In this document: positions 1,875 to 64,000 of the stretch, piece by piece
Position numbering within the stretch: position 1 is the first letter of the stretch
Layout of the letters: each line of letters opens with the position of its first letter
The notes under the pieces: generated by a model
What the model saw: only the letters and a program-made list of their open reading frames with translations
Databases searched by the model: none
What the model was told of the DNA's origin: nothing
NCBI GenBank assembly: GCA_032718475.1
Contig: JAUCBJ010004144.1
Coordinates: 124,001-188,000 of the forward strand
From: Nemertoderma westbladi
Lineage: Eukaryota > Animalia > Xenacoelomorpha
Length of the DNA: 64,000 nt
Direction: 5' to 3'
Translations under genes and position numbers: made by a program

Positions 1875-2591
1875 ACGCAGGAACAGGAGCACCAGGCACC
1901 GTTTAATCGTTATGGAGCCAAAACTTTAACGTGTTTGGAGTGGAGAGTATGGCTAGGAGTACAGCCAAGCTCGCTAAATCCAAGACGGATCCAAACATCA
2001 CGCGACAGCGATTGGACGCTTATAACAAAAGAGCGGAGGAGTTACGTGCGGAGTTCAAAGCGTTGTACCCCTACGATGCGTTATGCGACGCCAGTGAAAT
2101 TTGCGAGGATCCAGACACGGAGATACGCCGATTATATCATACGCTGCAATTTTTGACGGAAAACGAACCCTTGCCTGCAGCCAGGGATGAATATGAAGGA
2201 ATACGAGAAAGGCGAGATCGAGGAGTTCGGCGGAAGGCTCGCGAGCCTACCATTTTACTGGATATCCCACGATCAAACCAAACCTAAGTAGATGACACCC
2301 ATGCTCTTCGATAGTATCACCTTTGCTCAGCGTTTGTCGCAGAGACTACAGATACCTCATGTCGAGATGACGCAAGAACCTCGGCCCCATCCTACTAAAG
2401 CGGTAGTACCAGTCGCGAGACCAACCAGATATTTATATTTGGATATTATATTTGGGTATTTATATTTGGATATTATATTTGGGTATTTATATTTGGATAT
2501 TATATTTGGTTATTTATATTGGACGTTACGTTTGGACGTTGGTTTTGGAGGAGCGAGATATAGAAAGGAAGGCTTGCGAGCCTACCGTTAG
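1875..2591 (+). pseudogene. Deleted/frameshifted copy of accessory ORF3
   Basis: MARSTAKLAKSK..EIRRLYHTLQFLT..PLPAARDEYEG and AQRLSQRLQIPHVEMT match ORF 43034-44080. Two large internal deletions correspond to ~43288-43660 and ~43886-44305. Confidence 0.9.
2430..2522 (+). repeat. 24-bp tandem repeat (YLYLDIIFG x3) at a deletion junction
   Basis: tatttatatttggatattatatttgg repeated three times; single copy in the intact element near 44308-44333. Confidence 0.85.
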
Positions 2592-2948
2592 CAATTGGTG
2601 CTCAGGAGAAGATATCCAGACCAGCAGGACGAACTTTAGCTCGTCAGGAGGACACTTTAAAACTTATTTGAAAGTTATTAGCGCGTTATGTTTATTTTAT
2701 ATTTGAACTGATTTAATTTGGTGGAAGTTTATTATGTATATTTACAATATATAAAGATTTATCGAAGGAAATTTTGAAATTATTTGTTTGATTTGTTCTA
2801 ATTTGTTTTGATTTAATTTGTTTAATTTGTTTATCTTGATAACCGAAAGCTTTTTTTCGTATTTTATGTACTAAAGTTAATTGGTAAATTTGTGTTTTGT
2901 ATGTATGATCGATTGTATTTACGCCGTACCTGCAATATTAAGTATGCA

Positions 2949-3242
2949 TTGCATACTTTCCTACATCCAAAAATATTTTGCATGTACCTCTTTGATACTA
3001 ATGGCTAAGGTTCTGTCATTCAGCCAACTTATATTTTCATAGTTTTATTAATCTGGTTATATTTGTCACTGGGACACAAAATACCAAAATTCTGAAAATT
3101 AAATTGGTTGGGGGCAGGTGTTACCCTTAATGTAATTCAAAAATATTTTGCAAGGGACGTTTTTATACTAATGGTCAACTTTCCCACACATAGCCAAGTG
3201 CGATTTCAACAATTTGATTTTTTCACTCCGGCCTAGTATGCA
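2949..3242. mobile_element. ~290-bp MITE-like insertion in the 3' UTR of the deleted element
   Basis: Absent from the intact copy (aagtatgcaataattag, ~44739). Flanked by agtatgca at 2941-2948 and 3235-3242; begins ttgcatact, the inverted form of agtatgcaa. Contains an internal ~45-bp duplication. Confidence 0.55.
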
Positions 3243-3360
3243 ATAATTAGATAGCGATTATTTTATATTTTAGGCCCCACCAGTAGATTTAGAAGTAGTT
3301 TGTAAATATTTTGTATTTCGATTGGTGAAAACAGTCTTACTTACTGTTTTCATGGAGCGG

Positions 3361-5530
3361 TGGTGAATTATTTCACTATAAGATAGCATTTGTAGTTTAA
3401 CTTTAAGTTACAGTAATGTAATATGCCTATTCATATTTGTACACGTAAAACCCCTAGTTACTCTCGTGGTGTAGTGGTCAGATGGTTAAGGCGTTGGTTT
3501 CATTACAGATAGGTTACGAGTTCGAATCCTGGTCAGGAAATTTGCTTTTTGGGGCAATTTATTTTCATTTGGTACAAATTGATAGGCCAATGAGGTGCGT
3601 ACAACGTTTCGAACGATGAGTTGGGCCAATCATAGGGCATAGAACATCTTATTGCTCCAATGTGAGGCCATGGAATACTCTAGAAGATTCTAGTGGATTC
3701 TATGTTCCAGATTTAGTATATAAAGGGCTGGTTTCCCTTCGGTTATCACTTATCACAACTTGTATTAACACTCTTGCACAACTTACTTCTTGCTTAGTTA
3801 TTCGTTTCTTGTTGAAACTATTTGTAATTCTGTTTGATAAATCTTTGCTAAACTGTAAATACACTGCAAACTCCTGAACATGTTTTTCTTTGGTCCAACT
3901 TTGGGACAACCAAACATCGGGAAGATGGCAGCCTAGACTGTTAGGCCGTCAGCAACGCAGGGAGAAGATGTCCACAACACGCTAGCGCCCACATTAGATT
4001 AGACCGCGCACCCCCTTCGCCCTACGAAATACTCCACTTGCCATGCAGCGCCCGACTTCCGAGGAAGGTAAGACTTTGTTCGACGCCCTTGCCCGACGTA
4101 AGACCTATAGATCAGGGCAAGCGTGACGCCGTCCTGGGACGCCGCAAAATTTAGGATCAAATAATTATATTTTAGCCAGAAACCCCCTTTGTCAGTCCTG
4201 CGAATCCCTGGTTTACCTGTATACCTCACAGGTAGAAGCGAGCTATTGCCATCCGTCAGTACACGAGTACATATTAGGTACAGACAGCATATGTTCCATA
4301 ATTTAGTAATTCGCAAACTGACTGTTTGGTACCGGTTCGCTTTGTAGAGTATACATTAGTACACCCCCCCCCCCCTGCCTGAAGTTAGTTATTTGATCAG
4401 GCAAGGAGTATTTCTGCTACCGGCACACCGCTTGGCCTAGGGAGGTTTTATTAATATCCTACCGCGCCTTGCCACATACTGATAGGTATTTGCTGCTAAC
4501 TACCGCGGCAACAAAGTTCTAGAATCAAATTTGTATACCAGATCAGCTAACGTATGGTAGCAATTAACCCCTATTTCTTATCTTACAACCAGAATCTGGT
4601 ATTAGTGCCGATCACGGGTGTAGTTACAACACCGTGGTTGCCCAGTGAGTTGTGGATAGGAAGGAGAGAGCTTTGACGTCATTTGTAAGTATAAAGTTCT
4701 ACAAAACGCGACTAGCTTATTTTAGTAGCTAGCGCACGGTATTATTTTGGTCAGAGAATTACTAAAACCTAGTAAAATGGTATACACCAAAATTGTTTTA
4801 TTGTAACACACCCACACACACACGCCCTAAAACATATTTACCCTTAGAGTTCTACTAGTTATAGCGCACTTTAGATTACTTTTAGGCAGAATTTATCTGT
4901 AATTTACTATTCGTATTTGTAGAATTAGGATCTGATATTTAGTTACGGCAAAAAGGGAGTATTTTATTTTCGTTATTAAACTGTTGTTTTCTGCTCAGCA
5001 GTATTGTTACATTAGGCACGACCCTCTTTAGACTGATTTAGTACTGAATCAGTATTGTTACGCTAGGGCCGTAAACCACCTAGCTCGTATATAAACCATA
5101 TAAATCACACCACGACAAGTTACGGTATTTAGGACTGTCAGCAATAGTTAGGATTCGCTACGCGGGGATTGTTTTCCCGTGAGTTTGGTCTGTTACTGTA
5201 ACTGTACATCTGCCATACCGGTTAGAGGACAGGTATCCTTTTGTCTAGTTCGTAGGCATTAGACCCGCTCACGTTCATAGAATAGACACCAGGCTCTGCT
5301 CCTCGCCAGTAGTAGTTTGTGTATTGTATCTGTTTGTTTAGATATCCTGGACTGGGATTTGTTGTCAGATACTGTATGAGCCCGTTTCATTACTAGAGTA
5401 TCACAGTAAGATACATCGTTACTAGGATCTGGTAAGCGGTATACTACTGGACTTTACGGTTAGAGATATTCTATAGCTTCGTATTAGTAGATTTGTAGGC
5501 CGTAGGATAGTCCCTACCGTAGAGGACACA
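3361..5530 (+). repeat. Diverged 3' LTR (sister subfamily)
   Basis: Starts TG directly after catggagcgg, as at 44868. Colinear with 30047-32340 but has only one copy of the duplicated CCAAT module and a different 3' end. Confidence 0.85.
3461..3540 (+). other. tRNA-like (A-box/B-box) segment in LTR U3
   Basis: tggtgtagtgg A-box, gagttcgaatcc B-box; no convincing full cloverleaf. Confidence 0.6.
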
Positions 5531-8500
5531 AGAAGGGGAAAGACGAAGCAAAGAACAGCTGATTACATTACGTTCATGAAATAGCTGAGATACTTGAGGT
5601 GAATTGTTGCATTATATATGAACTTCAGCTCCAGTCTCTTTGGCAATACGATGAAACTATAATAAATATTCTAGAACACAATAATATTAACAGGGAGATA
5701 GGCTACTTATCTCTTCACTGTGTTACCAGTGTTACCTGTTCTTTTGACTTTCATTTTAGATTCTCTATCTCATGGAGTGGGTTAGAAGTTATAAATATGA
5801 AAATCGATGTGGTTTTTGAAAAAAATCAGAGGATATTTTGATAAATTATTGCTGAAAAACCCCTAGGATTTTGACATGGCTTTAATACTCATTATATTCA
5901 TGAAATAGCTAAAAAAGTTGAGGTGAATTATTGTATCACATATTAACTTCGGCTCCAGCCGCTTTGGCAACACGATGAAACTATAATTAATATTATAGAA
6001 CACAACAATATTAACAGGGAGATATGCTACTTATCTCTTCACTCTGAGAGCCTCAAAAAGGGGGTGTTCTGACACAATCAAAATGCATCCATCTCCAGGG
6101 GAAAGACGAAGCAAAGAACAGCTGATTACTTCTATAAATGTAAGTGTTACCTGCTCTTTTGACTTTCATTTAAGATTGTCTATCTCTTGGAGTGGGTTAG
6201 AAGTCATGAATATGAAAATCGATGTCGTTTTTTGCAAAAAATCAGAGGAGATTTTAATAAATTAATGCTGAAAAACACCAAGGATTTTGACATGGCTTTA
6301 ATACTCATTATATTCATGAAATAGCTGAGAAATTTGAGGTGAATTATTGTATCACATATTAACTTCGGCTCCAGCCGCTTTGGCAATACGATGAAACTAT
6401 AATAAATATTCTAGAACACAACAATATTAACAGGGAGATAGGCTACTTATATCTTCACTCTGAGAGCCTCAAAAAGGGGGTCTTCCGACGCAATCAAAAT
6501 TCATCCATCTCCAGGGGAAAGACGAAGCAAAGAACAGCTGATTACTTCTATAAATGTAAGTGTTACCTGCTTTTTTGACTTTCATTTAAGATTGTCTATC
6601 TCTTGGAGTGGGTTAGAAGTCATGAATATGAAAATCGATGTTGTTTTTTGAAAAAAATCAGAGGAGATTTTAATAAATTATTGCTGAAAAACACCAAGGA
6701 TTTTGACATGGCTTTAATACTCATTATATTCATGAAATAGCTGAGAAATTTGAAGTGAATTATTGTATCACATATTAAGTTCGGCTCCAGCCGCTTTGGC
6801 AATACGATGAAACTATAATACATATTCTAGAACAAAACAATATTAACAGGGAGATAGGCTACTTATATCTTCACTCTGAGAGCCTAAAAAAGGGGGTGTT
6901 CCGACGCAATCAAAATTCATCCAACTCCAGGGGAAAGACGAAGCAAAGAACAGCTGATTACTTCTATAAATGTAAGTGTTACCTGCTCTTTTGACTTTCA
7001 TTTAAGATTGTCTATCTCTTGGAGTGGATTAGAAGTCATGAATATGAAAATCGATGTGGTTTTTTGTAAAAAATCAGAGGAGATTTTAATAAATTATTGC
7101 TGAAAAACACCAAGGATTTTATACTCATTATATTCATGAACTATTTGAGATATTTAATACGATGAAACTATAATAAATATTCTAGAACATAACAATATTA
7201 ACAGGGAGATAGGCTACTTATATCTTCACTCTGAGAGCCACAGATAGGGGGTGTTCCGACGCAATCAAAATTAATCCATCTCCTGGAGAAAGACGAAGCA
7301 AATAACAGCAGATTACTTCTATAAATGTAAGTGTTACCTGTTCTTATGACTTTCGTTTAAGATTCTCTATCTCGTGGAGTGGGTTAGAAGTTATAAATAT
7401 GAAAATCGATGTCGTTTTTTGTAAAAAATCAGAGGAGATTTTAATAAATTAATGCTGAAAAACACCAAGGATTTTGACATGGCTTTAATACTCATTATAT
7501 TCATGAAATAGCTGAGAAATTTGAGGTGAATTATTGTATCACATATTAACTTCGGCTCCAGCCGCTTTGGCAATACGATGAAACTATATTAAATATTCTA
7601 GAACACAACAATATTAACAGGGAGATAGGCTACTTATATCTTCACTCTGAGAGCCTCAAAAAGGGGGTGTTCCGACGCAATCAAATTCATCCATCCCCAG
7701 GGGAAAGACGAAGCCAAGAACAGCTGATTACTTCTATAAATGTAAGTGTTACCTGCTCTTTTGACTTTCATTTAAGATTCTATATCTTCACTCTGAGAGC
7801 CTCAAAAAGGGGGTGTTCCGACGCAATCAAATTCATCCATCTCCAGGGGAAAGACGAAGCCAAGAACAGCTGATTACTTCTATAAATGTAAGTGTTACCT
7901 GCTCTTTTGACTTTCATTTAAGATTCTCTATCTCATGGAGTGGGTTAGAAGTTATAAATATGAAAATCGAGGTGGTTTTTGAAAAAAATCAGAGGATATT
8001 TTGATAAATTATTGCTGAAAAACCCCTAGGATTTTGACATGGCTGTAATACTCATTATATTCATGAAATAGCTGAGAAATTTGAGGTGAATTATTGTATC
8101 ACATATTAACTTCAGCTCCAGCCGCTTTGGCAATACGATGAAACTATAATAAATATTCTAGAACACAACAAAATTAACAGGGAGATAGGCTACTTATCTC
8201 TTCACTCTGAGATCCTCAAGAAGGGGGTGTTCCGACGCAATCAAATTCATCCATCTCCAGGGGAAAGATGAAGCAAAGAACAGCTGATTAATTCTATAAA
8301 TTTAAGTGTTACCTGCTCTTTTGACTTTCATTTAAGATTGTCTATCTCTTGGAGTGGGTTAGAAGTCATGAATATGAAAATCGATGTCGTTTTTTGTAAA
8401 TAATTAGAGGAGATTTTACTAAATTAATGCTGAAAAACACCAAGGATTTTGACATGGCTTTAATACTCATTATATTCATGAAATAGCTGAGAAATTTGAG

Positions 8501-27200: not shown

Positions 27201-30046
27201 TTTGACATGGCTTTAATACTCATTATATTCATGAAATAGCTGAGAAATTTGAGGTGAATTATTGTATCACATATTAAGTTCGGCTCCAGCCGCTTTGGCA
27301 ATACGATGAAACTATAATACATATTCTAGAACACAACAATATTAACAGGGAGATAGGCTACTTATATCTTCACTCTGAGAGCCTCAAAAAGGGGGTGTTC
27401 CGACGCAATCAAATTCATCCATCTCCAGGGGAAAGACGAAGCAAAGAACAGCTGATTACTTCTATAAATGTAAGTGTTACCTGCTCTTTTGACTTTCATT
27501 TAATATTGTCTATCTCTTGGAGTGGGTTAGAAGTCATGAATATGAAAATCGATGTCGTTTTTTGTAAAAAATCAGAGGAGATTTTAATAAATTATTGCTG
27601 AAAAACACCAAGGATTTTATACTCATTATATTCATGAACTATTTGAGATATTTAATACGATGAAACTATAATAAATATTCTAGAACATAACAATATTAAC
27701 AGGGAGATAGGCTACTTATATCTTCACTCTGAGAGCCACAGATAGGGGGTGTTCCGACGCAATCAAAATTAATCCATCTCCTGGAGAAAGACGAAGCAAA
27801 TAACAGCTGATTACTTCTATAAATGTAAGTGTTACCTGTTCTTATGACTTTCGTTTAAGATTCTCTATCTCGTGGAGTGGGTTAGAAGTTATAAATATGA
27901 AAATCGATGTCGTTTTTTGTAAAAAATCAGAGGAGATTTTAATAAATTAATGCTGAAAAACACCAAGGATTTTGACATGGCTTTAATACTCATTATATTC
28001 ATGAAATAGCTGAGAAATTTGAGGTGAATTATTGTATCACATATTAACTTCGGCTCCAGCCCCTTTGGCAATACGATGAAACTATATTAAATATTCTAGA
28101 ACACAACAATATTAACAGGGAGATAGGCTACTTATATCTTCACTCTGAGAGCCTCAAAAAGGGGGTGTTCCGACGCAATCAAATTCATCCATCTCCAGGG
28201 GAAAGACGAAGCAAAGAACAGCTTATTACTTCTATAAATGTAAGTGTTACCTGCTCTTTTGACTTTCATTTAAGATTCTCTATCTCATGGAGTGGGTTAG
28301 AAGTTATAAATATGAAAATCGAGGTGGTTTTTGAAAAAAATCAGAGGATATTTTGATAAATTATTGCTGAAAAACCCCTAGGATTTTGACATGGCTTTAA
28401 TACTCATTATATTCATGCAATAGCTGAAAAATTTGAGGTGAATTATTGTATCACATATTAACTTCGGCTCCAGCCGCTTTGGCAACACGATGAAACTATA
28501 ATTAATATTATAGAACACAACAATATTAACAGGGAGATATGCTACTTATCTCTTCATTCTGAGAGCCTCAAAAAGGGGGTGTTCTGACACAATCAAAATG
28601 CATCCATCTCCAGGGGAAAGACGAAGCAAAGAACAGCTGATTACTTCTATAAATGTAAGTGTTACCTGCTCTTTTGACTTTCATTTAATATTGTCTATCT
28701 CTTGGAGTGGGTTAGAAGTCATGAATATGAAAATCGATGTCGTTTTTTGTAAAAAATCAGAGGAGATTTTAATAAATTAATGCTGAAAAACACCAAGGAT
28801 TTTGACATGGCTTTAATACTCATTATATTCATGAAATAGCTGAGAAATTTGAGGTGAATTATTGCATTACATATTAACTTCAGCTCCAGCCGCTTTGGCA
28901 ATACGATGAAACTATAATAAATATTCTAGAACACAACAAAATTAACAGGGAGATAGGCTACTTATCTCTTCACTCTGAGAGCCTCAAGAAGGGGGTGTTC
29001 TGACACAATCAAAATTCATCCATCTCCAGGGGAAAGACAAAGCAAAGAACAGCTGATTAATTCTATAAATTTAAGTGTTACCTGCTCTTTTGACTTTCAT
29101 TTAAGATTGTCTATCTCTTGGAGTGGGTTAGAAGTCATGAATATGATAATCGATGTCGTTTTTTGAAAAAAATCAGATGAGATTTTAATAAATTATTGCT
29201 GAAAAACACCAAGGATTTTGACAGGATTTTATACTCATTATATTCATGAACTAGCTGAGATATTTGAGGTGAATTATTGCATTACATATTATCTTTGGCT
29301 CCAGCCGCTTTGGCAATACGATGAAACTATAATAAATATTCTAGAACACAACAAAATTAACAGGGAGATAGGCTACTTATCTCTTCACTCTGAGAGCCTC
29401 AAGAAGGGGGTGTTCTGACACAATCAAAATTCATCCATCTCCAGGGGAAAGACAAAGCAAAGAACAGCTGATTAATTCTATAAATTTAAGTGTTACCTGC
29501 TCTTTTGACTTTCATTTAAGATTGTCTATCTCTTGGAGTGGATTAGAAGTCATGAATATGAAAATCGATGTCGTTTTTTGTAAAAAATCAGAGGAGATTT
29601 TAATAAATTATTGCTGAAAAACACCAAGGATTTTATACTCATTATATTCATGAACTATTTGAGATATTTAATACGATGAAACTATAATAAATATTCTAGA
29701 ACATAACAATATTAACAGGGAGATAGGCTACTTATATCTTCACTCTGAGAGCCACAGATAGGGGGTGTTCCGACGCAATCAAAATTAATCCATCTCCTGG
29801 AGAAAGACGAAGCAAATAACAGCTGATTACTTCTATAAATGTAAGTGTTACCTGTTCTTATGACTTTCGTTTAAGATTCTCTATCTCGTGGAGTGGGTTA
29901 GAAGTTATAAATATGAAAATCGATGTCGTTTTTTGTAAAAAATCAGAGGAGATTTTAATAAATTATTGCTGAAAAACCCCTAGGATTTTGACATGGCTTT
30001 AATACTCATTATATTCATGAAATAGCTGAAAAATTTGAGGTGAATT
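12284..30046 (+). repeat. ~416-bp satellite array, block 2, with 3,680-bp higher-order repeat
   Basis: Diagnostic variants recur at +3680 (16908/20588/24268; 18843/22523; 19281/22961), i.e. eight ~416-bp monomers plus one 355-bp monomer. Confidence 0.97.
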
Positions 30047-30183
30047 TGATAAATTATTTCACTATAAGGTATCATTTGTAGTTTAACTTTAACGTAAAAA
30101 CTTTTGAAAATCCGACGTATTTTGAGTAAGTTATAGTAATGTAATATTGCCTATTCATATTGTACACATAAAACCCTTAGGTA

Positions 30184-30263
30184 CTCTCGTGGCGTAGAGG
30201 TCAGATGGTTAAGGCGTTGGTTACATTACAGATAGGTTACGAGTTCGAATCCCGGTCGGGAAA
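30184..30263 (+). other. tRNA-like Pol III A/B-box module in U3 (also ~45005-45084)
   Basis: tggcgtagagg..ggttaaggcg..gagttcgaatcccggtcgggaa; the 3' part resembles the eukaryotic tRNA-Glu end (GGTTCGATTCCCGGTCAGGGAA). Confidence 0.6.
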
Positions 30264-30308
30264 TTTGTATTTTGAGGCCATTTATTTTCGTTTGGTGCTA
30301 ATTAGTGG

Positions 30309-30556
30309 ACCAATGAGAAGCGTACAACGTAGCGAATAATGAGCCAGGCCAATCATAGGGCATAAATTATCTTATTGCTCAAATGTGAGGCAGTGGAAAA
30401 TTCTGCTAGGATTCCATGTCCCAGATTAGTGTAAGGGCCGGATTACGTTGAACGATGAGCTGGGCCAATCATAGGGCACAAAGCACTTTATTGCTCAAAT
30501 ACGAAGCTGTGGAAAATTCTGTTTAGTTTCCATGTGCGATATTTAGTATAAAAAGG
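30309..30556 (+). promoter_or_regulatory. Putative LTR Pol II promoter: CCAAT boxes in a duplicated ~115-bp module plus TATA
   Basis: accaat ~30309; ggccaatcataggg at ~30347 and ~30463; gtataaaaagg ~30547. The sister LTR has gtatataaagg at ~3716. Confidence 0.65.
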
Positions 30557-33311
30557 CCGGTTTGCCTTCGGTTATTATTCTTCTACACACCCTTAATGTT
30601 AGATTCAGATTCTCTTAGTAATTGTGATCTCTCTCTCTCTGTTAGTTTATTTCGGTTTCTTGTTGAAACTTTGTTTGATAAATCATTTTGTAAAACTGTA
30701 AATATACTGCAAATTCCTGAACGTGTTTTTTCTTTGGTCCAACTTGGGACAGCCAAACATCAGGAGGATGGCAGCCTAGACCGTTAGGCCGTAAGCAACG
30801 CAGGGAAGAGATGTCCACAACACGCTAGCGCCCACATTGGATTGACCGCGCACCCCCCTTTGCCCTTCGAAATACTCGACTTGCCATGCAGCGCCGCTTT
30901 GTGAGAAAAGTAAGACTTTGTTCGACGCCCTTGCCTGCCGTAAGACCTATAGATCAGGGTAAGCGTGACGCCGTCCTGGACGCCGCAAATTTAGGATCAA
31001 ATAATTATATTCAGACAGAAACACCCCCCCCCCCTTTGTCATGTCCTACGAACCCCTGGGTTAACCTGTACTTCCTACAGGTAGGCTACGAACTATTGCC
31101 ATTCGTCAGTACGCGAGTACATATTAGGTACGGACAGCATATGTTCCATAATTTAGTGATTCGTAGTACTGACTGTTTGGTACCGGTTCGCTTTGTAGAA
31201 CGTACATTAGTACCCCCCCCCCCCCCCCCTGTCTGGAGTTAGCTATTTGATCAGGCAAGGAGTATTTCTGCTACCGGCACACTGCTTGGCCTAGGGAGGT
31301 TTATTAATATCCTACCGCGCCTTGCCACGTACTGATAGGTATTGCTGCTAACTACCGCAGCAACAAAATTCTAGAATTAAATTAGTATACCAGATCAGCT
31401 AACGTACGGTAGCGATTAACCCCTATTTCTTATCTTACAACCAGAATCTGGTATTAGTGCCGATCACGGGTGTAGTTACTAACACCGTGGTTGCCCATTG
31501 GGTTGTGGATAGGAAGGAGAGAGCTTTGACGTCATTTGTGAGTATAAAGTTCTACAAAACGCGACTAGTTTATTTTAGTAGCTAGCGCACGGTATCATTT
31601 TAGTCAGAAAATCACTAAAACCTAGTAAAGGAATTACACGAAATTGTTTTATTTGTAACACACCCACACACACACGCCCTAAAACATACTGCCCTTAGAG
31701 TTCTACTAGCTATAGCGCACTATACATTATTTTAGGTAGAAGTTATCTGTATTTGTAAAATTAGGATCTGATATTTAGTTGCGGCAATAAGGAGTATTTC
31801 ACTTTCGTTATTAAACTGTTGTTTTCTGTCCAGCAGTATTGTTACATTTAGGCCTGACCCTTTAGACTGATTTCGTACAGGGGGATCAGTTATTGTTACA
31901 TTTAGGCACGACCCCTTTTCGACTGATTTAGGACAGTCAGTGTTGTTACGCTAGGTCTGTTAACCCACTAGCTCGTATATAAACCATATAAATCACACCG
32001 CGGCAAGTTACTGTATTTAGGACTGTCAGTGATAGTTAGGATTCGCTGCGCGGGGATTGTTTTCCCGTGAGTTTGGTCTGTTACTGTAACTGTACATCTG
32101 CCTCACCGGTTAGAGGACAGGTATCCTTTTGTCTAGTACGTAGGCATTAGACTCGCTCACGTACATAGAATAGATACTAGGCTCTGTTCCTCGCCAGTAG
32201 TCGTTTGTGTACTGTATCTGTTCATTTAGATATCCTGGACTGGGATTTGTTATCAGATACTGTACGAGCCCGTATACATTACTAGAGTCTCATAGTAAGA
32301 TACATCGTTACTAGGATCTGGTAAGCGGTATACTACTGGACCCTTACAGTAGGAAGTATTTATTAAATATCTCAACCGAAAGTGCGTGCGCATTTAAAGT
32401 GAGATATAGATAAATATCTGTTAGCTATTGTAAGTAGGAGATATTTAAAAATTAAGGTTAGTAAATTTAGTAATTTAGAACGTCCCCTGCTTCAGTAGGC
32501 TTTTAGGGTAGCTAGTACTTTCGTATTTAATATTTGACTAGCTAACAGTTAGTTTGTAGCACTTTGTTTTACGCCGTGTGTGTGCGGTGTTACCTTTCGG
32601 TACTTGAAAAGGTACATAGGGTTTAAAGACCAATTTGTATCGGTACCTAGGAAGATTTTTCGTAAGCGTAGAAGTAAAACTCTCACATTCGACCTTTTCA
32701 GGACTCAAGGACTCATTTCTGGACCGCTTCGAGGATTAGACCGCTTTTCGCAAAGTTTGGGAGACAATAAATTCGGCCGCGCCGCCGAAAACGGAAAGAC
32801 CCACGTCCGGTTTGTATTTGGGAATTTGTACGACTGGAAGATTAAAGGAACGTAAGTTTTACGACTCGCGTCGTTCAAACTTAAGAAAGCACAGTAGTAC
32901 TCAAAATTTGTGGGTTTCACTGTCTATTAGTAGTGATGTTGGTTCTTATTTTCCCGTTAGACGTTGCTGTTTAGCCTATTATTTGTATTGTTGATCTATA
33001 TTTTGGTAACGTATACCGTTATCTCATTTATTCGTACAAATTTAGCCGGTAGGCTAGATTACTACTTATTTTATTGTATACCTTTGTTAGTTTTATTCGT
33101 ACCGGTTAGGGTATATATATGATATATATATATATCAAGGTAAGTTTGACATTTGTACATTTCGACATTTTGACATTTCGACATTCTGACTTGTTGATTT
33201 ATTTGTACCGGTTAGGGTATATATATACTATATATACCAAGGTAAGTTTGACACTTCAACATTCAGACACTTTGACATTTTATTACCCGTACTTGACGTA
33301 TATAATAAGAC

Positions 33312-44860: not shown

Positions 44861-44867
44861 GGAGCGG
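44861..44867 (+). promoter_or_regulatory. Short PPT-position motif GGAGCGG
   Basis: Directly precedes the 3' LTR TG; same motif at 3354-3360 and, on the minus strand, 62034-62040. Confidence 0.7.
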
Positions 44868-47160
44868 TGATGAATTATTTCACTATAAGGTAGCATTTGT
44901 AGTTTAACTTTAACGTAAAAACTTTTGAAAATCCGACGTATTTTGAGTAAGTTATAGTAATGTAATATTGCCTATTCATATTGTACACATAAAACCCTTA
45001 GGTACTCTCGTGGCGTAGAGGTCAGATGGTTAAGGCGTTGGTTACATTACAGATAGGTTACGAGTTCGAATCCCGGTCGGGAAATTTGTATTTTGAGGCC
45101 ATTTATTTTCGTTTGGTGCTAATTAGTGGACCAATGAGAAGCGTACAACGTAGCGAATAATGAGCCAGGCCAATCATAGGGCATAAATTATCTTATTGCT
45201 CAAATGTGAGGCAGTGGAAAATTCTGCTAGGATTCCATGTCCCAGATTAGTGTAAGGGCCGGATTACGTTGAACGATGAGCTGGGCCAATCATAGGGCAC
45301 AAAGCACTTTATTGCTCAAATACGAAGCTGTGGAAAATTCTGTTTAGTTTCCATGTGCGATATTTAGTATAAAAAGGCCGGTTTGCCTTCGGTTATTATT
45401 CTTCTACACACACTTAATGTTAGATTCAGATTCTCTTAGTAATTGTGATCTCTCTCTCTCTGTTAGTTTATTTCGGTTTCTTGTTGAAACTTTGTTTGAT
45501 AAATCATTTTGTAAAACTGTAAATATACTGCAAATTCCTGAACGTGTTTTTTCTTTGGTCCAACTTGGGACAGCCAAACATCAGGAGGATGGCAGCCTAG
45601 ACCGTTAGGCCGTAAGCAACGCAGGGAAGAGATGTCCACAACACGCTAGCGCCCACATTGGATAGACCGCGCACCCCCCTTTGCCCTTCGAAATACTCGA
45701 CTTGCCATGCAGCGCCGCTTTGTGAGAAAGGTAAGACTTTGTTCGACGCCCTTGCCCGCCGTAAGACCTATAGATCAGGGTAAGCGTGACGCCGTCCTGG
45801 ACGCCGCAAATTTAGGATCAAATAATTATATTCAGACAGAAACACCCCCCCCCCCCCTTTGTCATGTCCTACGAACCCCTGGGTTAACCTGTACTTCCTA
45901 CAGGTAGGCTACGAACTATTGCCATTCGTCAGTATGCGAGTACATATTAGGTACGGACAGCATATGTTCCATAATTTAGTGATTCGTAGTACTGACTGTT
46001 TGGTACCGGTTCGCTTTGTAGAACGTACATTAGTACCCCCCCCCCCCTGTCTGGAGTTAGCTATTTGATCAGGCAAGGAGTATTTCTGCTACCGGCACAC
46101 TGCTTGGCCTAGGGAGGTTTATTAATATCCTACCGCGCCTTGCCACGTACTGATAGGTATTGCTGCTAACTACCGCAGCAACAAAATTCTAGAATTAAAT
46201 TAGTATACCAGATCAGCTAACGTACGGTAGCGATTAACCCCTATTTCTTATCTTACAACCAGAATCTGGTATTAGTGCCGATCACGGGTGTAGTTACTAA
46301 CACCTTGGTTGCCCATTGGGTTGTGGATAGGAAGGAGAGAGCTTTGACGTCATTTGTGAGTATAAAGTTCTACAAAACGCGACTAGTTTATTTTAGTAGC
46401 TAGCGCACGGTATCATTTTAGTCAGAAAATCACTAAAACCTAGTAAAGGAATTACACGAAATTGTTTTATTTGTAACACACCCACACGCCCTAAAACATA
46501 CTGCCCTTAGAGTTCTACTAGCTATAGCGCACTATACATTATTTTAGGTAGAAGTTATCTGTATTTGTAAAATTAGGATCTGATATTTAGTTGCGGCAAT
46601 AAGGAGTATTTCACTTTCGTTATTAAACTGTTGTTTTCTGTCCAGCAGTATTGTTACATTTAGGCCTGACCCTTTAGACTGATTTCGTACAGGGGGATCA
46701 GTTATTGTTACATTTAGGCACGACCCCTTTTCGACTGATTTAGGACAGTCAGTGTTGTTACGCTAGGTCTGTTAACCCACTAGCTCGTATATAAACCATA
46801 TAAATCACACCGCGGCAAGTTACTGTATTTAGGACTGTCAGTGATAGTTAGGATTCGCTGCACGGGGATTGTTTTCCCGTGAGTTTGGTCTGTTACTGTA
46901 ACTGTACATCTGCCTCACCGGTTAGAGGACAGGTATCCTTTTGTCTAGTACGTAGGCATTAGACTCGCTCACGTACATAGAATAGATACTAGGCTCTGTT
47001 CCTCGCCAGTAGTCGTTTGTGTACTGTATCTGTTCATTTAGATATCCTGGACTGGGATTTGTTATCAGATACTGTACGAGCCCGTATACATTACTAGAGT
47101 CTCATAGTAAGATACATCGTTACTAGGATCTGGTAAGCGGTATACTACTGGACCCTTACA
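44868..47160 (+). repeat. 3' LTR (2,293 bp)
   Basis: tgatgaattatttcac..ggacccttaca followed by TSD gaatt. Confidence 0.96.
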
Positions 47161-50100
47161 GAATTATTGTATCACATATTAACTTCGGCTCCAGCCGCTT
47201 TGGCAACACGATGAAACTATAATTAATATTATAGAACACAACAATATTAACAGGGAGATATGCTACTTATCTCTTCATTCTGAGAGCCTCAAAAAGGGGG
47301 TGTTCTGACACAATCAAAATGCATCCATCTCCAGGGGAAAGACGAAGCAAAGAACAGCTGATTACTTCTATAAATGTAAGTGTTACCTGCTCTTTTGACT
47401 TTCATTTAATATTGTCTATCTCTTGGAGTGGGTTAGAAGTCATGAATATGAAAATCGATGTCGTTTTTTGTAAAAAATCAGAGGAGATTTTAATAAATTA
47501 ATGCTGAAAAACACCAAGGATTTTGACATGGCTTTAATACTCATTATATTCATGAAATAGCTGAGAAATTTGAGGTGAATTATTGTATCACATATTAACT
47601 TCAGCTCCAGCCGCTTTGGCAATACGATGAAACTATAATAAATATTCTAGAACACAACAATATTAACAGGGAGATAGGCTACTTATATCTTCACTCTGAG
47701 AGCCTCAAAAAGGGGGTGTTCCGACGCAATCAAAATGCATCCATCTCCAGGGGAAAGACGAAGCAAAGAACAGCTGATTACTTCTATAAATGTAAGTGTT
47801 ACCTGCTCTTTTGACTTCCATTTAAGATTGTCTATCTCTTGGAGTGGGTTAGAAGTCATGAATATGAAAATCGATGTCGTTTTTTGAAAAAAATCAGAGG
47901 AGATTTTAATAAATTATTGCTGAAAAACACCAAGGATTTTGACATGGCTTTAATACTCATTATATTCATGAAATAGCTGAGAAATTTGAGGTGAATTATT
48001 GTATCACATATTAAGTTCGGCTCCAGCCGCTTTGGCAATACGATGAAACTATAATACATATTCTAGAACACAACAATATTAACAGGGAGATAGGCTACTT
48101 ATATCTTCACTCTGAGAGCCTCAAAAAGGGGGTGTTCCGACGCAATCAAAATTCATCCATCTCCAGGGGAAAGACGAAGCAAAGAACAGCTGATTACTTC
48201 TATAAATGTAAGTGTTACCTGCTCTTTTGACTTTCATTTAAGATTGTCTATCTCTTGGAGTGGATTAGAAGTCATGAATATGAAAATCGATGTCGTTTTT
48301 TGTAAAAAATCAGAGGAGATTTTAATAAATTATTGCTGAAAAACACCAAGGATTTTATACTCATTATATTCATGAACTATTTGAGATATTTAATACGATG
48401 AAACTATAATAAATATTCTAGAACATAACAATATTAACAGGGAGATAGGCTACTTATATCTTCACTCTGAGAGCCACAGATAGGGGGTGTTCCGACGCAA
48501 TCAAAATTAATCCATCTCCTGGAGAAAGACGAAGCAAATAACAGCTGATTACTTCTATAAATGTAAGTGTTACCTGTTCTTATGACTTTCGTTTAAGATT
48601 CTCTATCTCGTGGAGTGGGTTAGAAGTTATAAATATGAAAATCGATGTCGTTTTTTGTAAAAAATCAGAGGAGATTTTAATAAATTAATGCTGAAAAACA
48701 CCAAGGATTTTGACATGGCTTTAATACTCATTATATTCATGAAATAGCTGAGAAATTTGAGGTGAATTATTGTATCACATATTAACTTCGGCTCCAGCCG
48801 CTTTGGCAATACGATGAAACTATATTAAATATTCTAGAACACAACAATATTAACAGGGAGATAGGCTACTTATATCTTCACTCTGAGAGCCTCAAAAAGG
48901 GGGTGTTCCGACGCAATCAAATTCATCCATCTCCAGGGGAAAGACGAAGCAAAGAACAGCTTATTACTTCTATAAATGTAAGTGTTACCTGCTCTTTTGA
49001 CTTTCATTTAAGATTCTCTATCTCATGGAGTGGGTTAGAAGTTATAAATATGAAAATCGAGGTGGTTTTTGAAAAAAATCAGAGGATATTTTGATAAATT
49101 ATTGCTGAAAAACCCCTAGGATTTTGACATGGCTTTAATACTCATTATATTCATGAAATAGCTGAAAAATTTGAGGTGAATTATTGTATCACATATTAAC
49201 TTCGGCTCCAGCCGCTTTGGCAACACGATGAAACTATAATTAATATTATAGAACACAACAATATTAACAGGGAGATATGCTACTTATCTCTTCACTCTGA
49301 GAGCCTCAAAAAGGGGGTGTTCTGACACAATCAAAATTCATCCATCTCCAGGGGAAAGACGAAGCAAAGAACAGCTGATTACTTCTATAAATGTAAGTGT
49401 TACCTGCTCTTTTGACTTTCATTTAAGATTGTCTATCTCTTGGAGTGGGTTAGAAGTCATGAATATGAAAATCGATGTCGTTTTTTGTAAAAAATCAGAG
49501 GAGATTTTAATAAATTAATGCTGAAAAACACCAAGGATTTTGACATGGCTTTAATACTCATTATATTCATGAAATAGCTGAGAAATTTGAGGTGAATTAT
49601 TGTATCACATATTAACTTCGGCTCCAGCCGCTTTGGCAATACGATGAAACTATAATAAATATTCTAGAACACAACAATATTAACAGGGAGATAGGCTACT
49701 TATATCTTCACTCTGAGAGCCTCAAAAAGGGGGTGTTCCGACGCAATCAAAATGCATCCATCTCCAGGGGAAAGACGAAGCAAAGAACAGCTGATTACTT
49801 CTATAAATGTAAGTGTTACCTGCTCTTTTGACTTTCATTTAAGATTGTCTATCTCTTGGAGTGGGTTAGAAGTCATGAATATGAAAATCGATGTCGTTTT
49901 TTGAAAAAAATCAGAGGAGATTTTAATAAATTATTGCTGAAAAACACCAAGGATTTTGACATGGCTTTAATACTCATTATATTCATGAAATAGCTGAGAA
50001 ATTTGAGGTGAATTATTGTATCACATATTAACTTCGGCTCCAGCCGCTTTGGCAATACGATGAAACTATAATACATATTCTAGAACACAACAATATTAAC

Positions 50101-53970: not shown

Positions 53971-55091
53971 TTTAAACGAAGTCATAAGAACAGGTAACAC
54001 TTACATTTATAGAAGTAATCAGCTGTTATTTGCATCGTCTTTCCCCAGGAGATGGATGAATTTTGATTGCGTCGGAACACCCCCTTTCTGAGGCTCTCAG
54101 AGTGGAGAGATAAGTAGCCTATCTCCCTGTTAATATTGTTGTGTTCTAGAATATTTATTATAGTTTCATCGTATTGCCAAAGCGGCTGGAGCCAAAGTTA
54201 ATATGTAATGCAATAATTCCCCTCAAATATCTCAGCTAGTTCATGAATATAATGAGTATAAAATCCTTGTCAAAATCCTTGGTGTTTTTCAGCAATAATT
54301 TATTAAAATCTCCTCTGATTTTTTACAAAAAACGACATCGATTTTCATATTCATGACTTCTAACCCACTCCAAGAGATAGACAATCTTAAACGAAAGTCA
54401 AAAGAACAGGTAACACTTACATTTATAGAAGTAATCAGCTATTCTTTGCTTCGCCTTTCCCCTGGAGATGGATGAATTTTTATGGCGTCGGAACACCCCC
54501 GTTTTGAGGCTCTCAGAGTGAAGATATAAGTAGCCTATCTCCCTGTTAATATTGTTGTGTTCTAGAATATTTATTATAGTTTCATCGTATTGCCAAAGCG
54601 GCTGGAGCCGAAGTTAATATGTGATACAATAATTCACCTCAAATTTCTCAGCTATTTCATGAATATAATGAAGTATTAAAGCCATGTCAAAATCCTTGGT
54701 GTTTTTCAGCAATAATTAATCATAATATCCTTTGATTTTTTTCAAAAACCACATCGATTTTCATATTCATGACTTCTATCCCAGTCCACAAGATAACGAA
54801 TCTTAAACGAAAGTCAAAAAACAGGTAACACTTACATTTATAGAAGTAATCAGCTGTTATTTGCTTCGTCTTTCCCCAGGAGATGGATGAATTTTTATTG
54901 CGTCGGAACACCCCCGTTTTGAGGCTCTCAGAGTGAAGATATAAGTAGCCTATCTCCCTGTTAATATTGTTGTGTTCTAGAATATTTATTATAGTTTCAT
55001 CGTATTGCCAAAGCGGCTGGAGCCGATGTTAATATGTGATACAATAATTCACCTCAAATTTCGTAGCTATTTCATGAATATAATGAGTATT
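53971..55091 (-). repeat. Inverted, more diverged block of the same satellite (~2.7 monomers)
   Basis: aacaggtaacacttacatttatagaagtaatcagctg is the reverse complement of the monomer; the switch occurs at ..gacatggg|tttaaacg. Confidence 0.93.
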
Positions 55092-55092
55092 A

Positions 55093-56068
55093 GGTATTAG
55101 TAGGTATTAGTATTATAATAATAGGTATTAGTACCGGGCTATAAAATGTTGTACAAATACCGGGAAGGGGCCATATTGACCCCCCCCCCCCCCTCTAAAA
55201 TCTACAAATAATTACGAAAAAACGTCTGATTTTTTGTTTGTACGTAGGTATCACTTGTCTGGATCCGACCAAAAAAAAAATTTCCGAAAAAATGTAGTGG
55301 GGTGGTTATATTGCAGCACCAAAATTACAAGTAGTGCACAATTTTCACAAAATTTGAAAGTTACATTTTAGGCTAATTATTTTTCAATACAGGTTTTCTA
55401 GGGTGCAAAATACATTGGAAAATATTTAAAAAATGATATGATTACTATAAATGGCTGTTTAGTCCTCTCTGCGTAAGAAAAAAATGAAAAAAACAAGTAA
55501 CCAGCACTTTTCAGATAGAACTCAAAATGTTTAATTCACTTATACGATGCTATAAGTTCACATTTTCAGGTTTTCGAGAGCGCTGATTCTAATGGAATAC
55601 ATTTCTAATATGCCAGATCATTGCTACTTGTATTTTTCGGCGTAATTTGGCAAATTTCGGTGCTAGCACCTAATTTCGTACCCATCACCAAAAAGTACAT
55701 GTTTGCGAAGTCCAGTGCTGTTTTTATTGATTCCATCGGATTCAGGACCCTCATAAACCCGTATAACGCAAGAAACAAGGTGATACTATCAACTTATCAA
55801 TTTGCATGTTTTCCAAAATTTGGTGCTGGCACAACAATTTTCACCCACCAGCGAAAAATACAAGTTTGAGAACTTTTATGAAATTTTTACTGATTCCATT
55901 GAATTCAGAACCATCACAAACCCGTATAACGCAAGAAACAAGGTGACACAATCAATTGATATATTTGATGGTTTTCAAAATTTGGTGCTAGCACCACATT
56001 TTGCACCCACATCCGAAAAATACAAGTTTGAGATGTCTAGTTCGATAATTATATTTTCCATTGAATCG
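55093..56068. mobile_element. Degenerate non-autonomous DNA-transposon remnant resembling 10868-12283
   Basis: ggaaggggcc..poly-C (55162-55193) resembles 12244-12270; ~110-160-bp internal repeats (aatttggtgctagcacc, cccgtataacgcaagaaacaaggtga) resemble 12078-12120. Ends not resolved. Confidence 0.5.
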
Positions 56069-57723
56069 CTTAAGGTGTCATTTCTATTCAAAATTCTAGG
56101 CGTAGTGACATTCCCAGGATTACATTTCACTGTATCTCTTAAAATGTTAATTAATTGTGCTTGGGCATCGAGCTGCTTTTCCATCTCATTAACCTTGGCA
56201 TTTATATCATGTGTATAATTAGGTTCACCGTTCGAATATTGAAGACCATTCCCTTCCTGGTGAACTTCAGTTCCTTTTGTGTTCATTGGTATTCTGGGCA
56301 TATTAAACCGCACTTCTTGAGTTCCCTTGGGCACAAAGCTCGCATTTACCTCGAGGGAATGTGCCCGAGGATCAGTTGGGTAAACTCTATGAGAGTCACC
56401 AAAAAGTCGATTTTCCTTAAGAGGTTGAGTCTGATAAAAATACTTTGGCCGAGTGGTGCGAGACCTGGTGGTATCATTCCAATCAGAACTTCCCAAAGGC
56501 ATCTTTGAAGCTTCATTGGTGGCAATCTCTGCCACATCTTTATGACTCCTGGTCTCCCTATCATCCTCTCTTACTGTAACTTCCACCTGATTAATAGAAA
56601 CTTGTGGACTCGCCACTTTCCATGGTGTAGAATCGACTACTGCAGTTACTGGTAATAAATCACCTAACCGGGTTGAAGCAAAGTTAGGGACAGCAGTTTT
56701 TAACTCTTGGGAGAGTCGCAGTTCTTGACTGGGTTGTTGAGCTAGTTTGTCTCTCACTCCTATTAATGTCCTTTCTGTGCTTTGTCTCCGCTTTCTAGGG
56801 GTTGACCCAACTGAGTTGGCGCTGGAACAATGACTAGATTGAACACAATATGATAGTGCAAGTTCCTTTTCTAATTTCAAGGAGTTTAACTTCTTCCGGG
56901 ATTCCAGCTCATCACGTTCCTCCTGCATACGACGCTCAATATCGGCTTGTCGCTTCCTTTCAATATTTTCTCGAAGTCTCTCCTCGCTTTCACGTTGCTC
57001 TATTTCCTGGGTGAGTGCCAATTTTTCTTTCTCATATCGTTTCCGAATAGCCTCGGCTTCGATTTCTGCTTCTATTTCCGCTTGTAATCGAGCAGCTTCC
57101 TTTAGCTGCTGTCTTTGTAAACGAGAAGCAGATGATACCATGGATCCATCACTTGATTCGATATTGTTAATGGGCGTTTGAATTCTTTCGCTCTCAAAAT
57201 GTGGTAACTCAGGTGGAGTAACTCCTGTTCGGCCAAGTATAGTGTTATAAACTGAATGTGTTCATTGTAACTGCCTTCTGACATGAGATCGTGCTTTATC
57301 AACCAAGGCTGGCAGTTCCATGTATTTGCCATACCGCTCAAAGAGTTGGACAGTACACAAAGCTCTATCGAACCTTGGTTGTATCGCCGCGTAAAGCCGT
57401 TTGCCTGTTTCTGGTGAGAGAGAGGTTGGCGAAGATGACAAGTTTACACTGTGTTGTTGGATGTAGCGTGTGTATGCTGCTGAATAACCGCCTAGTGAAC
57501 GAGTAATAGACTCAATATCTTTGTCTGGGTCGAATCCGGCGGCACGCATTTCAGACAGAATCACAGTAATTTCATCACGATAATGGGATGATAAATTGTC
57601 TAAAGAAGGCTGGACAGAGACAGGAGGGATTGTTTCAACAATTGTTGAATCATGGGGACCTAGCTGTTCATCCGCCTCAACCTCAATTTCACTAAAAGAA
57701 AGGCCAGATTCATTCGTGGCCAT
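56069..57723 (-). pseudogene. Frameshifted, truncated N-terminal gag of a second BEL-like family
   Basis: Overlapping ORFs 57262-57723, 57102-57341 and 55975-57141 in different frames. E/R/Q coiled-coil followed by a disordered region, as in 33312-35700. Capsid core absent, so identity is inferred from architecture and context. Confidence 0.6.
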
Positions 57724-59239
57724 TTTGTTTAATTACTGATTTATAAGGTTAAATTAGGTAAGGCCTATGTTAAATACAGTACCGGTAGTAACAGGCCTAA
57801 AATATTATGTATATACCAGTATATTGATATATAGTAGGCCTAGGCCTAAAGCAGTAAAGTACCAATACTAATAACTAAAATAGTACCGGTAGGCCCAAGG
57901 TACAAAGTTACCGGTACCGGTATGATCTGATATATATATATAGTATGCAGGCAGGCCTAATTAGAAGTACAGAACTACAGAAGTACCGGTAATCAAATGG
58001 AAGCTTAATTTAATATTATAATACCGGTAGTTTATTACTAGGCTCACAGATTTCAAATACCAGTAGCGCCACCAGCACAATTCTGCAATTTGCCGCCTGT
58101 TACAGTCGTACAGTGTTATACTTACCGGTAATATATTTAACTTTGAATTATTACCGGTATAAATAAATAAATTTTGTCACCCGATCAGAACTGACTCGGC
58201 AAAATGATTTAATAAATAGAACCCCACACACACTCCAGATAAACACATAAAATGTACCGGTATCGGTCTGCCGGTATGGTACAGAAACTGGAGAGCAAAA
58301 GCTGAAAGTGGGTCGCCCAACGCTGCAACGTATGTCAGTATGGCGTATGGCTAACTAGCACCATGTAGGCCTACAGCAGTAGGTATCCGGTACGGTACCA
58401 TATGTAACCTAGTGTCAGTATCAGTACACACACACGCAGGGCAGTTCTTTATTTATGGCAGGCTATAGAAGAACAGAAGAACTGCTAAATCAGAACTCCT
58501 TTGTTAATATAAGAATGGCCACCTGGGTTTGATCCGCAGGAAACACAAACTCGGGGGAGAGACGAAAGACTCTCCCTTTAAATCGGGATTTGGCTAACCC
58601 AAAATGGAAGGTTCCGTTAAACTCACGGGTTCTGGCTGTCTGATTTGGAACTTACCTCTTACCTGAAGAAAAAATGTCTGTATCTACTAATTCCGAAAGT
58701 ATGGTCGGTAACTGTTCAGACACAAGAGCTGAGGATACAAATAAACAACAGAAAAAGGTGTCTGGCTTCCGCTAACTCGTAGAGAGAACGGGGACAGAGC
58801 AAAAATGCACCTCAAAACCGAGACTGTAACCAGGTAACCGAGCACTTCAATAAACACTCCGCCAACGTCGTCACGTTATTGGCTAATTGGCGGAAGGGGA
58901 AAAACGTAAATAACAAACCAAAGATCAATGATAAGCTAGGCTTTATTCACTATTCAGTCAGTCAGTTATTATCAGATTATCAACGATAGACTGCAATTTA
59001 CAGAGTGCTTTAACGAAGGCCAAGCCTTGCACTGCAATTTACCCGTGAACACGTTAACAAAGGACTAGTTCCTCCCGACATCAATAACAACAATATTCCA
59101 AAATACTGAAACACCGGTAGTGTACTACCTACCACAGTATTGCTGTACTGAACAAACAAAGTCAGATAGTGCTTTTACGAAGGCCAAGCCTTACACTGCA
59201 ATACCGGTATCGGACATTTTGTCATCTAAGATACAGTAG

Positions 59240-60904
59240 AAAGTGGACGGATAGGCAGATATTTTCATATTGACGGTTCGGCTAAGTACCAAGGACAGTC
59301 CCTCAACTCTGAGCTATTACCCGGACCCAACTTGTTACAATCTTTGCCCAGGATACTGATACGCATGAGACAATACGCGTTTGCTTCGGACATAGAGGGT
59401 ATGTATCTGCAAGTGAAAGCCTTGGCCATTGACAGGGACAGCATGCACTTTTTGTGGTAGACAGAAGGTGACTTGAATTCCAATCCAGTTGAGTATCGTA
59501 TGACTATACAGGCGTTCGGTATCATCTCCAGCCCTTCTAACTCGTGCTCAGTGTTACACCGGACAGCTGATGATCATCGGGATGAGTTCCCACCATCCGT
59601 CGTAGATAATATCAAAAGAGATATTTACATGGACAATAACTTAAAATCAGCTCCGATGGTTAAGGAGGCCATAGACATTGCCCAAGGGACAGTCAACTGT
59701 CTGAAGCTTGGAGGATTCCGCCTGACGAAATTTACCAGTAATTGTCATGAATTCCTGAAGGCCATACCTCCCGCAGAGTGTGGCGATACAGAGCTCGACT
59801 TAAAAGAATCTGAAGAAACTGCCAGAAACTAAGACATTAGGGCTCCGTTGGTTGACTGAAAGTGACACTATGGTGTTTAAAGTTAAGCTAAGAAAGGGCG
59901 ACACTTGAACTAAGCGCATTTGCCTCAGCATACTCAGCACTTATTTCGACCCCCTCGGCTTTATTAGCCCAGTTATACTGCTGGCCCAAGACCTAGTTCA
60001 GCGTATGTGGAGGGAAAACGACAGTTGGGAAGACCCCCTGACAGGGACACTCCTAGAGGACTGGTGGAAATGGGAACGGTCCTTACCTGACCTAGAAAGG
60101 TTCTCCTTACCCAGGGCATACTTCCCAAATGTAGATTCCCTGCAGACTTATGAACTCCATGTGTTTGGTGACGCGAGCGACAAAGGTATCGGGATTGTAG
60201 CTTACTTTAGATGTGAAACCTTAGATGATGTCTCAGCATTGGTTGCCTCAAAGGCTTTGATAAGACCAATCGCCAAGACAAAAGACACCCTAACTATTCC
60301 CCGAGCCGAACTTAAGGCGGTCATATATGCCACTATCATCCCTAAGAATGTGTTAGCAGCACAGACAGACTATAAGGTAATAAGGACAGTTTACTGGACA
60401 GACTTCACTACTGGACAGGCTGCATTTAGAATATCTGACCAGCACGACATGCCAGTTCAGTGTATATGTGATGAACCGTGTGGCACGAATATTGAAAGAA
60501 ACAAGTGTCGATCAGTGGATGCACTGTCCAGGATTGCATCCACTGACATTGCGTCTCGCGGTGCCACCCCCCAGGAACTGCTAGATGCTAAGTGTTGGTT
60601 ACAGGGCCTTGTCTTTTTGCGAGGCCCTGAGAATAGTTGGCCCCCAAACTTAACACCTGCAGAAATAAGGCAACAAGCAAAGGGTGCGAAAATTGCTAAG
60701 TCTAAGAACAAAGCGTCTAAATCAAAACTATTCAGAAATATAGACATATCTTCACTGCATGTACATGAGAATATAAGCCAACAAAGCCCCCCAGACAGTG
60801 AAGCCCTTATTACCCTTTCAGTTCCAGATTTGGCTGGCGGCCTTTCACCGCTCATTAGCAAAGCCATGGACCATTACAGTTTGTTCGCGCTTTCAGACCT
60901 TTAG
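59240..60904 (+). pseudogene. pol: BEL/Pao RT-RNase H fragment (second family)
   Basis: SLNSELLPGPNL..FASDIEGMY..FLW*, YMDN, FDPLGFISPV, LHVFGDAS, TIPRAEL, YWTD, DIASRG; contains stops and frameshifts. Confidence 0.92.
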
Positions 60905-63642: not shown

Positions 63643-64000
63643 ATAAGTTTATCCATATTATAATGAGTTTATATTTAGGCGAGCGGGCGTCGCTGCCTAC
63701 CCCTCTCTGCCCCCGGACAGTGCGAGATCCTCAGCGCTGGTGTACTTTCGCCGATGTGCCTATCGCCAACGTCGTAGCTGCACAACGACTACAACAACCA
63801 GCACGAGTCACTCCACCGTCCGTCCCAAAGGCTTAGATATACTTCAGGTTCTTACTGGAGAGTTAGGGCTACTTTCACAATTGCGACTCGCTACTGTAAA
63901 CACAGCTTAGTAGTAACATTCACCTACAAACGCACAAATTCCACGTAACTGTCACAAATGATACAAATTCTATCACACATTCGGGTCATTTGTCCGTTAG

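Follow-up and report, generated by a model that had tools for sequence, protein, structure and literature searches.

In Tf1 and Tf2, a self-primer located in R pairs with the primer-binding site and is cut free by the reverse transcriptase (RT), as described in the excerpted text of PMC5341516. Self-priming has been described for the Tf1/sushi group of Ty3/gypsy chromoviruses, and the Tf1 primer is the 5′ terminus of its mRNA, held in a structure of three duplexes (bioRxiv 2022.12.06.519325, in excerpt). A sequence rule predicts self-priming for Tcn1 and for TAR copia elements (Houba, Osr-1) as well (PMC6317226, in excerpt). As profiled by the ICTV, the Belpaoviridae are primed by tRNA-Arg or tRNA-Gly at an 18-nt site, their LTRs measure 0.2-1.2 kb and their genomes 4.2-10 kb, and the replication of BEL/Pao elements is poorly understood (PMC8742986); clade names and further background are found in excerpts of PMC8220671, PMC13524379, PMC6238403 and PMC3601003. 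No self-primed or splice-primed BEL/Pao element was found in the literature searched, main texts with few subscription papers among them, and the terms "PBS" and "tRNA" are not found in PMC554778, PMC3118150, PMC6238403 and PMC8556966.

The window, by which we mean the whole stretch of 64,000 nucleotides analyzed, consists largely of a 416-bp satellite, into which a 17.1-kb LTR retrotransposon is inserted (Table 1). By its Pol, its TG..CA LTR ends and its target duplication, the element is of BEL/Pao type. Profile search of gag-pol recovered DUF1759, Pao peptidase A17, integrase H2C2 and DUF5641 domains (PF05380 at E 1e-39, PF03564 and PF18701 above the cut-off, PF17921 below it), and the closest proteins are 40-45% identical over RT-RNase H, the named ones coming from echinoderms, hemichordates, molluscs, cnidarians and a brachiopod, which points to a marine invertebrate as the likely host. 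The two LTRs are 99% identical, with nine substitutions and a few indels between them. Gag-pol is unusually long: its N-terminus is extended, proline/aspartate repeats separate RNase H from integrase, and both of its in-frame stops sit in a short repeat. The extra open reading frame 3′ of pol had no match in Pfam or the Atlas; a deleted and broken homologue of it lies in the sister copy at about 1950-2430. Transcription of the element would start near 30578. Within the U3 part of the LTR, and likewise in the 3′ and sister LTRs, the segment corresponding to 30180-30260 is one that we take to be tRNA-like, with motifs resembling pol III A and B boxes; called neither by ARAGORN nor by Rfam, it is possibly a captured SINE head. 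The satellite array that hosts the insertion spans 5565-55090 and counts at least 74 copies, a block of which is inverted near 53979-55090; it is followed by fragments of decayed elements at 55975-57732 (minus strand), 59250-60904 (plus strand) and 62100-63650 (minus strand), which comprise one Pao RT-RNase H piece and two minus-strand regions that are putative gag N-termini. Viral contigs contained no relative, and the exact LTR-end pattern matched 0 metagenome contigs.

Table 1. Features of the retrotransposon and its sister LTR (window positions).
Feature	Position	Strand	Remarks
Sister LTR	3361..5468	+	About 84% alike; hairpin site 4220-4229; own slot 5459-5468
Left target-site duplication GAATT	30042..30046	+	In 416-bp satellite unit; repeated at 47161-47165
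5′ LTR	30047..32348	+	2302 nt, TG...CA
Likely promoter	30310..30553	+	CCAAT boxes 30310, 30349, 30465; TATA box 30547; all in sister LTR too
Hairpin holding primer sequence	31062..31082	+	Stem kept, loop changed in sister LTR
Predicted self-primer	31069..31078	+	Unbroken by intron; 3′ end 31078
Two ATTAAA hexamers, candidate poly(A) signals	31376..31815	+	At 31376 and 31810; 3′ of primer site
Primer-binding slot GTAGGAAGTA	32349..32358	+	Directly after 5′ LTR; starts GT; no TGG
Gag-pol, single frame of about 2950 codons	33312..42182	+	In-frame stops 34368, 34395
Extra open reading frame, 349 codons	43031..44080	+	3′ of pol; no family assigned
Short purine-rich tract, likely PPT	44861..44867	+	Directly before 3′ LTR
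3′ LTR	44868..47160	+	Second primer-sequence copy at 45892-45901

Several features of the primer-binding slot that had been noticed in the original prediction hold on closer analysis. The TGG expected of a tRNA-type site is absent: the nearest one, at 32337, still belongs to the LTR, and the one after it lies as far off as 32720. The slot is indeed the exact complement of 31069-31078, a match that occurs elsewhere in the window only in the 3′ LTR copy at 45892, and the 3′ end of the primer abuts the LTR end as proposed, with ten Watson-Crick pairs and one G-U pair starting from the first post-LTR base. The hairpin said to enclose this sequence is likewise recovered, with a predicted fold of -8.8 kcal/mol (-9.7 in the sister LTR), and it is less stable than the primer-slot duplex, for which we calculate -14.6 kcal/mol for the core and -21.0 with flanks. 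As a partner for the slot the 31069 site is the best in the LTR at -17.8 kcal/mol, against at best -10.7 elsewhere in it. The sequence rule of PMC6317226, in the excerpt available, asks for at least 10 nt of complementarity starting 0-5 nt after the LTR and selects the window element. When the LTR was shuffled with dinucleotides preserved, a 10-mer complement appeared in register in 17 of 3000 cases and with 0-3 nt of slack in 49 of 3000; in shuffles of the whole element the corresponding counts were 12 and 28 of 600, and an empirical count over 12511 internal 10-mers found 21 with an LTR complement. Contigs of other copies, drawn from two studies, retain the slot, and their divergence sets in only at 32359 (X3, one contig) or at 32361 (X1, three contigs, which may derive from the window's own source), while run X6 presents a second slot type resembling that of the window's sister copy; seven X4 contigs, whose identity as RNA is only guessed, were left out of the analysis. 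ARAGORN identified no tRNA encoded by the element, and Rfam no known ribozyme at gathering score. Taken alone the match between slot and LTR is suggestive, and it is the related elements described below that make the case strong.

The sister LTR allows a comparison within the family, and the slot that follows it (5459-5468), overlooked in the original prediction, makes covariation testable inside the window. The expectation that the sister slot would pair at all ten positions with its own hairpin site is borne out only in part: in this single sister copy seven of the ten pairs form, with agreement at two of the five predicted changes and disagreement at three. Compared with the main element, the sister slot differs at positions 3, 4, 7 and 8 and the hairpin site at positions 3, 4, 6, 7 and 8, and only positions 4 and 8 are compensatory. 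That all four slot changes coincide with changed loop positions hints at joint change. The resulting duplex has a predicted stability of -9.4 kcal/mol, and no spliced junction in the sister LTR pairs over more than 8 nt. This copy would not be expected to prime well, which counts against a clean self-priming story. It is a deleted copy in a tandem-like arrangement, with an LTR that terminates in CG; decay or recombination is a possible cause of the imperfect pairing. The region from 1174 to 5530 consists of 3′ internal sequence, the sister LTR, the slot and then about 70 nt of non-satellite DNA, in the manner of a tandem or recombinant.

Relatives of the element were collected through RT alignment as 91 loci, drawn from the best 80 of at least 577 confirmed ones and from 12 others. 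Eighteen of these entered the slot test, from which L063, L072 and L091 were then excluded for repeat ends that are not LTR-like, leaving 15 loci in which the LTR starts of L040 and L064 are estimates; L002/L078 and L081/L082 are sister pairs, so that the 15 amount to about 13 families. All 15 have GT at offsets 0-5 from the LTR, and 14 have no TGG there, the exception being L050 with TGG at offset 1. The best complement of the slot again lies in the element's own LTR, often over only 5-7 nt, and it stands right after a pyrimidine tract and AG. Joining this acceptor to an upstream GT completes the match: 12 of the 15 relatives reach 10-13 nt across a GT-AG junction, the introns that split the primer measuring 77-451 nt, and two more have an unbroken complement of 10-11 nt. 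Overall, then, an exact complement of 10-13 nt is present in the own LTR of 14 of the 15; L084 misses the exact rule (5 nt), and by eye a spliced primer with one mismatch fits it. Among controls, 10 nt was reached in 2 of 236 pairings with foreign LTRs and by 9 of 248 downstream GT slots. The best donors conform to GTRAG in 9 of 12 cases, versus 30 of 813 GT sites, even though the search required only GT. Between L081 and L082, two exon-1 bases before the shared donor differ and the slots change in step, a compensatory pattern.

A blind search of 56 further loci gave 18 matches, compared with 4 and 5 of 56 in the two nulls; L004, L006, L008, L076 and L079 belong to families already counted, and the match of L034 falls outside its own LTR and is likely false, leaving about 12 new families. 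The 38 misses include many contigs that have no LTR, where a tRNA site is possible. Two of the excluded loci, L063 and L072, match in the blind search and L091 does not. The single 10-nt blind match in the window's second BEL fragment, located in a palindrome-rich stretch, was not counted. Across 23 spliced-primer loci there is a G-rich position 9-11 nt before the donor, with G at -10 in 14 of the 23, and this position may take part in a second helix, pairing with bases beyond the slot. The loci L080-L091 are BEL/Pao elements on 12 contigs filed as bacterial MAGs, likely through host contamination.

These comparisons bear on two readings in which the match between slot and LTR would mean nothing for priming. 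The first, in which the primer site has decayed or been deleted and the match is a coincidence, draws on the shuffles that reach 10 nt with slack (28 of 600), on the two stops in gag-pol and on the imperfect pairing of the sister; it is opposed by the near-identity of the LTRs, by retention of the same slot in other copies and by the recurrence of the same geometry with different letters in 14 of 15 relatives, and we regard it as very unlikely. We give no better prospects to the second, in which the primer is a host RNA, a half-tRNA or some other small RNA, and the complementarity to the LTR is a side effect without meaning. Half-tRNA primers are known in some copia lineages (PMC6317226, in excerpt), but a mature tRNA requires the TGG that the slot does not have, and slots vary freely among related families yet track their own LTR, which a fixed host RNA would forbid. 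We return to priming by RNA from the LTR itself and to the form that such RNA might take.

The original prediction had connected splicing with priming, offering as primer either a cleaved LTR RNA or the tail of an excised intron. A bearing of splicing on priming is upheld by the relatives, in a geometry that is the reverse of the one proposed, since the primer spans an exon-exon junction in 12 of 15; the relatives support the cleaved LTR RNA and, their primers being exonic, go against the intron tail. On the intron-tail reading, the window element would excise an intron whose donor lies at 30910-30959 and whose acceptor is at 31080, and the trimmed 3′ tail of this intron would serve as primer. 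The site does read as a pyrimidine-rich acceptor at 31080, GTRAG donors are present at 30910, 30940 and 30959, and ACAGGT is kept in the sister; the donor-like site at 30910 is confirmed, reading AAA/GT in the 5′ LTR and AAG/GT in the 3′ LTR. The acceptor reading is weakened by the sister site, which fails the same filter, and intron-less relatives have no AG after the primer site (L064, the L074 3′ LTR, L028, L031 and L063). The last two bases of such an intron would oppose the LTR's CA with one mismatch and one pair, so that trimming would presumably be needed. No joint across 30910-31080 is present among the contig matches listed, from contigs that are mostly DNA. An intron tail as primer is in our estimation improbable, and the exonic, cleaved LTR RNA is the reading that we carry forward.

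If most relatives assemble their primer by splicing, the unbroken primer of the window element invites comparison with relatives that have no intron. The 3′ LTR of L074 matches the L079 LTR except that exactly 536 nt, bounded by the predicted splice sites, are missing from it, and one family is thus represented both with its intron and without. The difference is evidence, at the level of DNA, both for the splicing of an intron of this kind and for its capacity to be lost. The L074 contig itself combines an acceptor-bearing 5′ LTR with a precisely intron-less 3′ LTR (137-145 and 6915-6924; L079 137-672) and could reflect recombination or a chimeric assembly. In an RT tree, three of the intron-less loci L028, L031, L063 and L064 group together and L064 stands apart, which, in a tree that is unrooted, suggests repeated intron loss among the relatives. 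The window's RT, 39-44% identical to those of the relative loci, forms a long branch that adjoins spliced-primer loci with support of 0.90-0.93 (47 sequences, with neither named references nor an outgroup). The window family has probably arisen by loss of the intron; that the intron was lost, and not absent from the outset, is our interpretation of this outgroup-free tree. Spliced junctions in the window's LTR pair with the slot over at most 5 nt, and an intron-bearing form of the family was not seen among the sequences compared.

Taken together, these observations, all made on DNA, lead us to propose that the element's primer is probably a cut piece of its own LTR RNA, used in place of a tRNA as in Tf1. 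The transcript would start upstream and fold back, the hairpin opening as 31069-31078 pairs with 32349-32358. The element's RNase H would then cut after the final AC, just 3′ of 31078, and RT would extend the new 3′ end across the LTR end. Strong-stop DNA could jump to the 3′ end of the RNA by means of the stretch that separates the cut from the poly(A) site; an AATAAA-type hexamer lies 3′ of the primer site in 14 relatives (L040 has none), the arrangement that strand transfer would require. Where relatives carry an intron, the primer would be put together at the exon junction by host splicing. In new LTRs, the whole part upstream of the cut would have the RNA's 3′ end as its template, so that an intron would survive only if the 3′ copy is unspliced, and splicing of the 3′ copy would yield intron-less LTRs such as those of L074, L064, L028, L031, L063 and likely the window element. 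Against the mechanism stands the likely transcription start, which precedes the primer by about 490 nt, unlike in Tf1. Among the relatives no clear TATA peak was seen upstream of the primers. The primer site is also a hairpin arm followed by AG-GT, and other roles are thus possible. One of these would make the pairing structural, acting in packaging, dimerization or folding, with priming achieved otherwise, for instance by a second genome copy or a protein. A primer in a hairpin loop, far from the likely cap, suits loop-target pairing of this kind; however, in all resolved cases the start of the duplex falls 0-5 nt away from the LTR end, and its polarity is the one that copying of that end requires, and we hold a purely structural role to be extremely unlikely.

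With the cleaved LTR RNA as primer, the window element probably belongs, as a member without the intron, to a BEL/Pao group that primes itself and uses no tRNA, and the splice-built primer predicted in its relatives would be the more striking part of this variant of self-priming. More tentatively, at somewhat less than an even chance, we envisage a wide BEL/Pao group of marine invertebrates that dispenses with tRNA priming, in which the spliceosome assembles the primer at an LTR exon junction and the intron owes its persistence solely to splicing of the 5′ copy but not of the 3′ copy; the giant family of the window would have lost its intron, the hairpin loop replacing the splice gate as a subfamily-specific key. 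Were this correct, the two LTR copies should be spliced asymmetrically. BEL/Pao would be the third LTR superfamily with self-priming, after gypsy and, by prediction, one copia lineage, and a reverse-transcription primer would be made by splicing, a step for which the literature searched holds no parallel. Transposition would be tied to host splicing and presumably no longer subject to control through the supply of tRNAs or through tRNA fragments, and screens for tRNA primer sites would score such elements as having none.

Comparison with the known systems defines what is shared and what is distinct. With the Tf1/sushi group the window element has in common an LTR-derived primer that pairs over at least 10 nt with a site after the 5′ LTR, its release by RT being described there and predicted here. 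It carries Pao domains rather than the Pol of a Ty3/gypsy chromovirus and is not a member of that group. Its primer seems to lie well inside the RNA, in a hairpin, whereas that of Tf1 is the RNA 5′ end; most relatives have the primer split by an intron, and none is described for Tf1 in the excerpted sources. Compared with the Tf1 "pretzel", the window element shows one short extra helix towards the LTR end. TAR copia elements and Tcn1 are alike in that their self-primers are predicted by the same sequence rule, and differ in being plant copia or gypsy elements for which the excerpt of PMC6317226 describes no intron-split primer. From the Belpaoviridae as profiled by the ICTV the element departs in having no tRNA site, LTRs of 2.3 kb and a total length of 17.1 kb, and it resembles them in the domains of Gag-Pol and their order, in its LTR ends and in its metazoan relatives.
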